From a bacterium (lineage in GTDB: Bacteria; UBA8248), in contig CBDBBI010000007.1 in assembly GCA_965202625.1 (NCBI GenBank), positions 1-23,285 on the forward strand: a stretch of DNA of 23,285 bases. Direction: 5' to 3'. The translations under genes and the position numbers were made by a program. Of the stretch, positions 2,803 to 9,896 are shown piece after piece. Numbering within the stretch: position 1 is the stretch's first letter; each line of letters opens with the position of its first letter. Under the pieces are notes generated by a model that was not told the DNA's origin, ran no database searches, and saw only the letters and a program-made list of their open reading frames with translations.

Positions 2803-2942
2803 GCGGAGGACGCGGACGCCCTCGCCGCAATCGCGCTTGCGGATTCTGCCTTGCGCGACCTTTGCAACGCCCTTGCACGGCCATTTTACAAGCCGTTTAG
2901 GCCCCGAAAAACGGTCTTTTTCAGGGCATTCCGGGTTATTTT
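2803..2942 (+). repeat. Diverged dispersed non-coding repeat, copy 1
   Basis: Shares collinear exact blocks ACGCGGA, CCTCGCCGC, CACGGCCATTT, CCCGAAAAA, CAGGGCATTC and TTATTTT with 22307-22431. Confidence 0.7.
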
Positions 2943-3210
2943 TGTCTGGCTACAGCCGACCAGGCTGTCCAGGGCGTATGCGGCCCGGGGGTTGTTCCGC
3001 GCATACCACCCAGCCCGCCGCTGTGGTCGCCCCCGTCAGGAGCACCGCGTTCAGCCCCTCGACTGTTCGCCGCTCCCTCCCAACGCCACCCGGTCGAAGC
3101 CACGGATGCGCGCAAGGCCGAACAGGCGATGGAGGAAGGTCCGCATGGGCGGAAGAATCGCCCAAAACGGACTCTCAATCTGTTGGAATGTTTGGGAAAG
3201 GTTATGCTGG

Positions 3211-6326
<3,116 letters not shown>

Positions 6327-6330
<4 letters not shown>

Positions 6331-6977
6331 TCTGCCTCCCCTCTTTCGTCTAATTCTCCTGCCAGAAAGCGAGCGCCGAGGTCCCGATAAGCCACGGGAT
6401 CCACGGAGAACAGAAGCTCACTGGCATAGTAATCCCCCTCGCAGACCTGCACCATGCCGTACTTGCGATCAATTACTTTATCAAGCTGCCCATCACGTTC
6501 TGGAGGGCCCACTGGCCTTCTTGTGAGAATCTCATTCTCGAGTTTTTCTTCAGGGTTGGGAACATCGAACAGAAAACCGAAAATCCATAGCGCGCTTTCC
6601 CGAATGATTCGAAGAACCTCGATTTCGGGAGTTCCCTTGATTCCGCCATGATACTGCTCGTTTCTGTGGTTGTGCGCCCAAATTACGGATGCGCGATCAA
6701 TCCTGAATGCAGGAGTGCGAGCCTTGTATTCGCACTCCAGGAAGTCAAGTTTCGTGTGATAATTGTTGAGCCATTTTTCGACCTGCGCTTGCGTATACTG
6801 GCGGTTTTCTCTCTGGATCGGATCCAGGGAGAGGTACGTCGCGATGGCGACTTCAATGGAGTTGTCAAAGGAGATGAGCGCGATACGACGGTCGAAGTCA
6901 TCGCCATTCCGAAGATGGCCTTCCGCGTGAACGAGCAGTTCAAACGGACCCTTCGCCCAAGGGCGAATCCCGCTCAT
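6327..6977 (-). CDS. Putative HEPN-domain ribonuclease embedded in the hsd operon
   Basis: 216 aa, helical-looking. N-terminal [12 protein letters not shown] helix (E42) and R105-N-E-Q-Y-H110 fit the HEPN Rx4H signature. Its stop overlaps the hsdR start (ATGA). GC is visibly lower than in hsdR and hsdM. Confidence 0.7.
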
Positions 6978-7018
6978 GTCACAGCTACCTTGCCGTTGCG
7001 AGAGATCGGCGCGTCCAT
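6974..7018 (-). other. 14-codon mini-ORF ([14 protein letters not shown]) bridging the hsdS stop and the HEPN start
   Basis: Its ATG (7018-7016) overlaps the hsdS TGA (TGATG). Its TGA (6976-6974) overlaps the HEPN ATG (ATGA). Translation is not demonstrated. Confidence 0.45.
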
Positions 7019-8336
7019 CACGGCACTCGCCCGAGGAAGGTCTCGGCGTCCTTCACGCGGATTTCGCCGGACATCAGATTCGGAAGAAGGAGGTCGCGGG
7101 TTTGGGCGAGGGTGCGGCTCTCTCCACTAAAGAGTCGCTTCTGCAGCATCATAGAGAAGCTGAGGAAGGCTTCGAGAACTGGCACAGGGGCCACGACAAG
7201 CCTATGACTATCCATCAAGCCTTTGCCGTTTAAGTTTGGAACGGATGTGCCTGAGATAAACTTTTGGATTTCTCCGTTTAGTTTCATCCTGTGTAGATGC
7301 CGATCGACAAAACAGGCGTGACCGGGCGTCTTGCAGACTATTCTCTTCACAAAATTCGAGTAGATAGTTTGACCTTTCCTAGAAAAGAAATCTTCAACTC
7401 CAACCCAGAGTGACCTGCCACATGGACCCACGCCAGACGAGGCAATCAAGACGTCGCACGTGCTAATAGTTCGCTTTGCTATCGCCACACGCTTGGCAAA
7501 CCGCCAAGGTGCCTTGGGTGCTGTTCCCTGCTCCCTCAGGTGCTGGATGTCGACCCCTCGTAGGCACATGTATGCGTCGAAATCCGCGTTCTCAGGCTCG
7601 TCCTTACCCCAAAGGCCACCAATAGTGATTTCGCCGAGCGCGCCTAATGATAACTCTTCCCATCCTTCCGGCTTGCCTTCCTCATCCAGCCTGTCGGGGA
7701 ACAGGTCCCAGATTTCGGGGGCGATGTAGGGTTCGCGGCCTTCCATCTTGGCGCGGGTGGGGCCGAAATCCACGAACCAGTCCTTGAAAATCGCCCGCGC
7801 CATCGCCTCCAGCGTCTCGTTCATCCGCCGGTTCAGGTCGATCTTGTCGTCGAGGGCGCCCAGGGTGGCGGCTATCATGCGTTGTTCGGGGAGCGGAGGA
7901 GTCATCACCTCAAGTGCTTCAATCGCCGACGGGCTTACATTTGCCTGTGCTGAGCCATGGGAGGAGGCTTCGACCCGCTGGCGAAAATCGTCGTTGGACA
8001 CCAAAAAGAACAGAAAATCTAGATCGCAGCGCTCACTAGGAAAAAACTTCCCAACTCTTTGATTTAGCACGAGGGCGTCGAACCCCCGGACCTTTGCAAC
8101 CTCGCCGACATAGCCTGTAAGGCCGATCAGAATATCACCATCCGACAACATGAAACCGCTGCTCGTCGCGTCGGCCTCGGCGACAAACGAACAGCCGCCC
8201 ATATCCAACCGACCGCGTTTGACGTTCCCAATCTTTACGACTGGGACACCTTGATCAGTCCACTGCGAACTCTTGAAGGCAAAGCCGGACTTTACCCGCG
8301 CCAATTTCCCAATTTTACCCGTGGTCCAGTTTTCGG

Positions 8337-8340
<4 letters not shown>
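7018..8340 (-). CDS. hsdS: Type I R-M specificity subunit S
   Basis: Two target recognition domains separated by the conserved region [42 protein letters not shown], with C-terminal [15 protein letters not shown]. The GTG start overlaps the hsdM stop (GTGA). Confidence 0.96.

Positions 8341-9896
<1,556 letters not shown>

Follow-up and report, generated by a model that had tools for sequence, protein, structure and literature searches.

The window analyzed here is the whole of contig C7 (CBDBBI010000007.1), a stretch of 23,285 bases from a bacterial genome of 3.09 Mb in 10 contigs, and our subject is a small gene embedded in its type I restriction-modification (R-M) operon. Four consecutive genes on the minus strand make up this operon, in the order hsdM, hsdS, X and hsdR, where X is our working name for the product of an open reading frame (ORF) of 216 amino acids (aa) at positions 6327 to 6977. 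A sequence-only reading of the window had picked out this ORF as a lower-GC gene between hsdS and hsdR, leaving its strand unstated, and had proposed that it encodes an HEPN protein that guards the R-M enzyme. The ORF was indeed found there, on the minus strand, with a GC content of 0.525 compared to 0.621 for the window, and Pfam identified its neighbors as hsd genes. The operon has the following features.

8337..9896, minus strand: hsdM, type I methyltransferase subunit, 519 aa (Pfam N6_Mtase, 4.1e-106; HsdM_N, 7.6e-29)
7018..8340, minus strand: hsdS, specificity subunit, 440 aa (Pfam Methylase_S, 1.5e-20)
6978..7017, minus strand: hsdS-X spacer of 40 nt with an AAGGTAG Shine-Dalgarno-like stretch, read from the sequence
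6327..6977, minus strand: X, 216 aa, unnamed family, N-terminal HEPN-like domain plus small C-terminal domain
6528..6977, minus strand: N-domain of X, residues 1 to 150, probable HEPN domain (from an AlphaFold2 model and conservation)
6648..6665, minus strand: R105-N-E-Q-Y-H110, candidate catalytic Rx4H motif at the end of predicted helix 3
6363..6527, minus strand: C-domain of X, residues ~151 to 205, modeled as a helix, a beta-hairpin and two helices
3211..6330, minus strand: hsdR, restriction/translocase subunit, 1039 aa (Pfam HSDR_N, SWI2_SNF2, T1R_D3-like and T1RH-like_C)

The hsdM stop and the hsdS GTG start overlap as GTGA in the junction sequence, and the X TGA overlaps the hsdR ATG as ATGA (6327 to 6330), an arrangement that suggests translational coupling of X and hsdR. 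ATGA overlaps had been read at both ends of X, but only the 3′ overlap with hsdR exists; at the 5′ end, 40 nt separate the hsdS stop codon (7018 to 7020) from the X ATG (6975 to 6977), and the AAGGTAG stretch lies ~9 nt upstream of this ATG. When we scanned the operon for promoters and terminators, the signals did not exceed chance level. The GC content of the other three genes was 0.634 (hsdR), 0.650 (hsdM) and 0.555 (hsdS), and GC at third codon positions was 0.57 in X versus 0.80 and 0.83. The closest solved structure to the HsdR of the window is EcoR124I/II HsdR (E = 1.6e-32, residues 118 to 489). The window HsdR retains the nuclease, Walker A and DEAH motifs and is apparently intact.

X belongs to a large family that carries no annotation. 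A word-indexed search with X returned 667 homologs at E ≤ 1e-3; the 120 matches listed were 207 to 225 aa long and 57 to 84% identical to X, and among them every protein with a name was a “hypothetical protein” and none had a precomputed Pfam domain. The few named sources were Planctomycetota metagenome-assembled genomes. An exhaustive HMMER search of 50% cluster representatives gave 653 relatives of X, 98 of them at E ≤ 1e-30. X itself had no match in Pfam (E ≤ 1 and also E ≤ 10), NCBIfam (E ≤ 10) or PHROGs. Checking PADLOC for novelty, as the sequence-only reading had suggested, likewise gave 0 families at E ≤ 10 in version 2.0.0, which covers cataloged systems plus candidates. A scan of the 216 residues revealed no Walker A motif, in agreement with the claim that X lacks a Walker motif and an ATPase domain.

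The RNEQYH and DNSIE stretches on which the HEPN proposal was founded are both present, the former at nucleotides 6648 to 6665 and the latter at residues 38 to 42. Since one R....H is expected 0.52 times by chance in a protein with the length and composition of X, the motif by itself is not beyond chance; its invariance across homologs is. We aligned to the family profile 269 homologs that had been gathered by HMMER or word searches with no motif requirement. Position 105 was R in all 260 homologs with an aligned residue and position 110 was H in all 259, the rest being gapped fragments, and this invariance spanned free-standing, mid-size and long architectures. Conservation of RNxxxH in homologs, which the HEPN proposal needed, was therefore borne out. 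N106 was kept in nearly all aligned homologs (it is S in 4 of 144 solo forms), and H21, D27, D29, R31, D38, E42, R56, H102, N106 and Y109 were invariant or nearly so in all architectures. The D38-N-S-I-E42 stretch falls in predicted helix 2, and its D38 and E42 are both invariant. In the C-domain, D170, S186, E187, D193 and Y197 were conserved across the 144 solo forms, and no fused form had them. Variants of 320 to 325 aa have a conserved extra C-terminal region of ~110 aa and occupy the same operon position (L072:1810-2772, L083:611-1573 and L102:8147-9124). Judging from these alignments, X is a real and strongly conserved gene.

The position of X within the operon is conserved as well. We assembled 83 related loci, namely, 3 from a single-protein genome scan and the best 80 of 144 relatives from a metagenome alignment scan, and placed the HsdM, HsdS and HsdR of the window on them by tblastn. 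Among the 70 loci whose upstream flank was 300 nt or longer, 65 had HsdS upstream on the same strand (58 within 150 nt), and among the 77 whose downstream flank was this long, 67 had HsdR downstream (54 within 150 nt). All 28 loci with at least 3.5 kb of upstream sequence contained HsdM. The order hsdM-hsdS-X-hsdR is thus nearly universal among related loci, and the misses were short contigs, divergent HsdS subunits or loci with other genes inserted after X. EcoprrI has the gene order hsdM-hsdS-prrC-hsdR. In no locus with enough flank did we see the free-standing 216-aa form outside a type I operon. The sequence-only reading had itself named homologs lying apart from R-M or defense loci as a result that would count against it; what we found is that they are tied almost exclusively to the hsdS-hsdR slot. 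The sole locus on a viral contig also has the order M-S-X-R, with 4-nt overlaps and an X extended to 325 aa. The identity of X to the window copy tracked that of HsdR (rho = 0.62, n = 27) and of HsdM (rho = 0.60, n = 30); because related sequences are not independent, this correlation says no more than that the genes of the cassette move together.

In three X-bearing loci, hsdR is apparently interrupted, by an in-frame stop in L002:8654-11818 and by an HsdR match in two or three pieces in L058:3301-4547 and L070:9696-12825. Either decay of the restriction gene next to an X that is still intact or errors of assembly may account for this. In the window, a 95-aa ORF that overlaps the end of hsdR (2936 to 3223, minus strand) was rejected as a gene, being of low complexity, without a Pfam match and unconserved in the related loci. 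Housekeeping genes flank the operon, with XdhC-type and phosphoribosyltransferase-type genes on one side and PdxA, HAD hydrolase and zinc dehydrogenase genes on the other.

The slot between hsdS and hsdR also accommodates other genes. A self-contained MNT/HepT pair directly follows X in six loci (L056, L058, L059, L065, L070 and L074), so the statement that no antitoxin adjoins the gene holds for the window and not throughout the family. Elsewhere, a TIR_2 protein lies between X and hsdR, followed in the one locus that extends this far by a membrane protein and a KwaB-like (Kiwa-type) protein; two loci have the membrane and KwaB-like pair in this place without TIR_2. Other inserts between X and hsdR include a pair of genes for 385-aa and 163-aa proteins, a ~200-aa protein that looks like a four-helix bundle, and a P-loop-type protein; Pfam checks covered three of the genes inserted here. 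Slot inserts other than MNT/HepT occur in L046, L047, L049, L057, L076, L003, L028, L063, L045 and L002. X stays directly after hsdS even where other cargo has been inserted; L002 has a 923-aa gene between hsdS and X.

Sister operons can do without X altogether. In L115, L116 and L117, whose HsdR proteins are 54 to 74% identical to that of the window, X is missing and the slot holds one of three kinds of cargo, that is, a 275-aa protein with an FRNFIH stretch, ABC-3C genes (DUF2326 plus HNH/CTD10), or a DUF6978, DUF1828/1829 and Abi_C combination. Abi_C-type genes act as autonomous effectors. The same genome that contains the window encodes a second type I operon (L118, contig C10, 230000-245200), with an HsdM 80% and an HsdR 54% identical by tblastn, in which 4.2 kb of other DNA and no X separate hsdS from hsdR. 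Given that sister operons without X carry other cargo, X is dispensable for the enzyme, which argues against its being a core subunit.

X is patchily distributed, as expected of defense cargo. Of 22 other genomes from the genus, 1 carried it, and of 18 further relatives none did. The N-domain was found in 4 of 401 genomes of the phylum to which the Holophaga locus belongs, of which three were divergent and had no Hsd match within 10 kb, and in 2 of 401 Pseudomonadota genomes. Among plasmids, only four Leptospira records contained it, at 35% identity over the N-domain. On these plasmids (L101, from Leptospira interrogans, 8001-8429, and three similar ones), the distant relatives are annotated as hypothetical, and their neighbors are hypothetical genes, an HNH endonuclease gene and a Shedu SduA-domain gene.

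Relatives with longer architectures link the N-domain to HsdR. In 26 of 26 scanned long forms (~600 to 680 aa), the X-type N-domain was fused N-terminally to an HsdR-type SWI2_SNF2 motor, and a T1R_D3-like domain was also recognized in 7 of these 26. In two further proteins, P0171 (931 aa) and P0146, it was fused to an HsdR that bears HSDR_N and keeps the PD...ELK nuclease motif. The fused motors appear to be defective. Among the 31 with an alignable Walker A (e.g., P0149, P0153, P0186 and P0179), the GSGKS lysine had given way to L, I, M or V in 28 and to R in 2 and was retained in 1, and the DEAH box was likewise lost; in contrast, the HsdR of X-bearing operons kept both G-S-G-K-S and D-E-A-H in 22 of 22 cases. 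From these substitutions, the motors fused to the X-type domain would be catalytically dead HsdR-like scaffolds, and an HEPN-like domain on such an inactive scaffold looks like a sensor or decoy arrangement. We found no fusions of this kind in the 401 Pseudomonadota genomes or in plasmids, and the sole viral-contig locus is not of the fused form. Two other long proteins carry the X-type N-domain on different partners, namely, a long run of TPR repeats in P0145 (826 aa) and ~900 residues without a Pfam match in P0154 (1075 aa).

Mid-size relatives pair the N-domain with a second small domain. A second R[NDS]xxxH motif was found in the C-terminal domain of 17 of 32 mid-size relatives, while an 18th match fell inside the N-domain region. 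The tandem forms of ~250 to 300 aa (P0264, P0253, P0236, P0258, P0242 and others) consist of an X-type domain plus a second small RNxxxH domain. In a Pfam scan of 67 relatives, the only families matched by more than one of them were HEPN families, with HEPN_RiboL-PSP in 8 (best E = 4e-5), HEPN_Apea in 4 and HEPN_Swt1 in 3; HepT-like was matched by 1. On this evidence, the tandem relatives would be an X-type domain joined to a canonical small HEPN domain, as expected of an HEPN dyad. Three tandem forms were traced to genomic loci (L098 to L100), where hsd genes were absent within 10 kb; a gene for a TrwC relaxase is close to one of them and a gene for a UvrD helicase to another. A separate N-terminal module of ~110 aa is shared by P0127 (residues 1 to 111) and the product of L115:200-1027 on the minus strand (residues 1 to 107), with 36% identity and E = 8e-19. 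It joins a complete X-type protein in P0127 and a different C-terminal helical domain in L115, an X-less sister operon, which by its sequence is a case of module shuffling among slot proteins.

We then asked whether the N-domain itself is an HEPN domain, as the RNEQYH motif implies. HEPN domains have been described as four-helix up-down bundles with frequent inserts between helices 2 and 3, and their Rx4-6H motif has a polar residue (N, D or H) after the R and is accompanied by a nearby conserved acidic residue in helix 2, typically in the form Ex3[K/R] (PMC3710099, available portion). AlphaFold2 modeled whole X with a mean pLDDT of 86.7 (35-sequence alignment) and residues 1 to 150 with a mean pLDDT of 93.7 and a pTM of 0.89 (67-sequence alignment). 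The predicted N-domain helices span residues 6 to 24, 27 to 50, 95 to 110, 119 to 136 and 142 to 149, with an insert of three short helices (53 to 56, 63 to 69 and 73 to 87), and in both models the insert lies between helices 2 and 3 and RNEQYH ends helix 3, ahead of the loop to helix 4. The predicted topology and motif placement fit the published description, and R105-N-E-Q-Y-H110 has the Rx4-6H form with a polar residue after the R. In Foldseek searches with these models, HEPN, Csm6 and Csx1 entries held many of the top PDB ranks (4nqf, 2hsb, 1wol, 8xeh, 8yuf, 8xdj, 2q00, 8pe3, 5yep and 7ae6), and the nearest named ESM Atlas clusters, which are leads only, were HEPN_RnaseLS/RnlA and DUF3644 (scores of 0.80 to 0.81). 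When the N-domain was compared by hhalign to the C-terminal HEPN domain of the tandem relatives, the two motifs aligned in register with E = 0.0033, whereas seven controls (reversed alignments plus five HsdR segments) gave E values of 0.039 to 0.61. The power of this test is low, since even the C-terminal HEPN domain and DUF3644, both RNxxxH families, reached only E = 0.016.

A number of results weigh against this assignment. No Foldseek match to the PDB reached E ≤ 0.001; with the whole model the best E value was 0.29 and with the domain 0.42, at TM-scores of 0.4 to 0.6, and the viral library BFVD gave nothing meaningful (best E = 0.18). A sequence-profile search of the PDB with X gave nothing at E ≤ 10. 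The hhalign comparison to the tandem HEPN domains had a probability of only 9.8%, and the comparison to a seven-sequence DUF3644 alignment had a probability of 0.3 to 0.4%. Hence, across Pfam, PDB profiles, Foldseek and hhalign, X has no statistically significant link to recognized HEPN families. The acidic residues in helix 2 (D38 and E42) are not in the Ex3[K/R] form, and the conserved set is richer than a plain HEPN site, including as it does H21, D27, D29, R31, R56 and H102. Nor can the Pfam matches of the relatives be used to classify the N-domain: in the three proteins checked (P0264, P0253 and P0236), the HEPN_RiboL-PSP, HEPN_Swt1 or HepT-like matches, which are below Pfam cutoffs, fall at residues ~200 to 267, in a separate C-terminal domain outside the region shared with X, so X is not directly classified by them. 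Since the fold and profile matches are consistent but not significant, we regard an HEPN fold for the N-domain as probable, with good though incomplete confidence, rather than demonstrated. Of the fold claimed by the sequence-only reading, then, the predicted topology stands, while the database comparisons have not secured it.

The concept of an HEPN effector in an R-M operon is already in print. At least 16 HEPN clades have been linked to R-M operons, with reversible inhibition by R-M subunits proposed in the manner of PrrC; the R-M enzyme would keep PrrC masked until a block to restriction set it free (PMC3710099, 2013, available portion). The same source describes R-M-linked HEPN fusions to a SWI2/SNF2 ATPase (Swt1-like, WQE_15321) and to EcoEI-like SF2 helicases, and reports that such domains fuse to nuclease/restriction or helicase subunits and never to the methylase. 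X resembles these clades in being ATPase-less or, in its relatives, fused to a restriction/helicase subunit and not a methylase, and those clades were likewise predicted to be a second line of defense. It differs from them in matching no Pfam model built from them, and the accessible part of PMC3710099 does not mention loss of the Walker A lysine in fused motors. Payne et al. (10.1101/2024.01.29.577857), who added 145 candidates to PADLOC, report in the portion available that PrrC is near-exclusively embedded in R-M loci and that HEC-08, a single-gene HEPN (DUF3644) found in Hma systems, defends alone and loses its defense when the motif histidine is mutated. Given that ATPase-less HEPN proteins in R-M operons were proposed in 2013 and that HEC-08 already provides a motif-dependent example, the novelty claimed for the gene was overstated.

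X nevertheless differs from each of the characterized systems that it resembles. Like PrrC of EcoprrI, it is an effector gene with an HEPN motif that resides within a type I hsd operon and hardly ever occurs apart from one. However, PrrC has an N-terminal regulatory ABC-type NTPase, whereas X has 216 aa, no Walker A and a small C-domain instead; we detected no sequence similarity between the two, and PADLOC, which models PrrC, gave no match. X is similar to HEC-08 as a single HEPN-type gene that lacks an ATPase and is embedded in a DNA modification defense system (the ESM Atlas score of 0.80 for DUF3644 is a lead only), but neither X nor, among the families listed, any of the 67 relatives matched DUF3644 (PF12358). 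In Ronin, the effector RonA is caged by HsdM/HsdS and released by ArdA or Ocr (10.1101/2023.04.06.535777, available portion). Its effector is thus genetically tied to type I subunits, as X is, and the dead-motor fusions hint at comparable decoy logic. In contrast, Ronin has no hsdR, and its RonA is a membrane protein of 61 aa, while X is a soluble helical protein of 216 aa beside an apparently intact HsdR. HepT of the MNT/HepT (DUF86) systems is a small HEPN protein with RNxxxH, and solved HepT-type structures were among the top Foldseek matches; however, no MNT adjoins X in the window, and in related loci MNT/HepT are separate cassettes downstream of X. No title or abstract among the listed papers that mention both HEPN and HsdR describes the X family, the supplementary tables lying outside this comparison. 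We conclude that X represents a new, widespread and unannotated family of a known type, the HEPN-type effector embedded in an R-M operon, and that its link to the hsdS-hsdR slot is unusually tight.

As a rule, it takes two HEPN domains to build an active site. We favor, at roughly even confidence, a model in which X is an ATPase-less HEPN effector coupled to the type I enzyme much as PrrC is. X would be the accessory effector of a mobile type I cassette, hsdM-hsdS-X-hsdR, in which R105-N106...Y109-H110 and the helix 2 residues D38 and E42 would form a metal-independent RNase site and the C-domain of ~55 residues would dock X onto the R-M enzyme. HsdR would be the most likely docking site; X and hsdR are apparently coupled in translation, and the N-domain is fused to HsdR-type motors elsewhere. 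Because the C-domain occurs only in the free-standing form and is absent from every fusion, it resembles a docking module that a covalent link has replaced. On an intact enzyme, X would be held inactive, as a monomer or masked; if restriction were blocked or overwhelmed, X would cleave RNA and cause growth arrest or abortive infection, making it a nucleotide-triphosphatase-free analogue of PrrC. A complex prediction with X and residues 1 to 780 of HsdR (score of 0.00, mark of 0.32) is evidence neither for nor against such docking. A wider version of the model is more tentative and, in our view, possible but doubtful as it stands: X and the N-domain-motor fusions would be an HsdR-gated family of HEPN guards, found in several phyla, with decoy variants that parallel Ronin. 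HsdR, or a dead HsdR-like decoy motor, would hold individual HEPN protomers separate and thereby inactive until anti-restriction proteins, stalled translocation or loss of the enzyme released them to pair into an active RNase.

One challenge to coupling is that X could be a self-contained HEPN effector of the Abi/toxin type, for which the hsdS-hsdR junction is a safe, cotransferred slot and which senses phage independently of the R-M enzyme. This junction is a hotspot for cargo genes, with TIR_2, KwaB-like, MNT/HepT and other genes between X and hsdR and with other cargo in place of X in the sister operons and L118. Since it holds unrelated and probably autonomous cargo, even beside X, embedding alone is no proof of functional coupling; this counts against our model, as do the distant N-domain relatives found away from R-M genes, among them the tandem-HEPN forms that stand outside R-M operons. 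Furthermore, HEC-08, an embedded single-gene HEPN, defends on its own (10.1101/2024.01.29.577857, in the part available). Nonetheless, the free-standing form was seen only in type I operons wherever the flank sufficed, an exclusivity comparable to the near-exclusive embedding of PrrC. The N-domain has also been fused repeatedly to HsdR-type motors, its dedicated C-domain is limited to the embedded form, and X keeps its place directly after hsdS despite the other inserted cargo. Coupling to the enzyme is favored by the exclusive embedding, the motor fusions, the dedicated C-domain and the translational coupling taken together, and we consider an autonomous passenger unlikely.

Two further explanations dispense with a toxic RNase. 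X could be a non-toxic accessory or regulatory subunit whose HEPN-like domain binds a nucleotide, RNA or DNA and modulates assembly, restriction alleviation or the coupling of translocation to cleavage. X is very highly conserved, on a par with HsdR and HsdM; the ATGA junction with hsdR is suggestive; the window contains no antitoxin; and the dead partner motors of the fusions would suit a scaffolding role. The available part of PMC3710099 does describe some HEPN domains as non-catalytic binding domains, but these typically lose Rx4-6H, whereas the motif is invariant in the X family. This, together with the patchy distribution of X and with close sister operons (HsdR 54 to 74% identical) in which other cargo takes its place and X is evidently dispensable, leaves a regulatory subunit decidedly improbable. 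Alternatively, X could be no HEPN RNase at all and instead another enzyme, such as a metal-dependent nuclease or phosphohydrolase that uses H21, H102 and H110 together with D27, D29, D38 and E42 on DNA or nucleotides alongside HsdR; in the motor fusions without HSDR_N, the domain would then replace the PD-(D/E)xK nuclease. The many invariant His, Asp and Glu residues outside Rx4H are in keeping with this idea, as are the non-significance of every fold and profile match to HEPN and the location of the domain, in the ~600- to 680-aa fusions, where HsdR has its N-terminal nuclease domain. However, the Foldseek lists are headed by HEPN entries and not by metal-dependent hydrolases, and the domain pairs with a canonical HEPN domain in the tandem forms. 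An HD-phosphohydrolase reading of the “HDH” at positions 102 to 104 was also rejected, given that position 103, which would supply the D of the HD pair, is N in X and E in others. We therefore regard an enzyme of another kind as very unlikely.

The coupling model matters beyond this operon. The type I-tied effectors described as experimentally studied in the available portions of the cited papers are PrrC and Ronin. By comparison, the X family offers a simpler test case, with 216 aa, one candidate catalytic motif, no regulatory ATPase and a possible tether domain, and its natural fusions point to HsdR as the partner. Were coupling not true, X would be an ordinary autonomous HEPN passenger of the slot. 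If it is true, a restriction enzyme could cage an RNase without nucleotide sensing, and a family now filed under “hypothetical protein” would join the defense system catalogs. The dead-motor fusions, for their part, would extend the decoy idea from the methyltransferase core, as in Ronin, to the translocase subunit.

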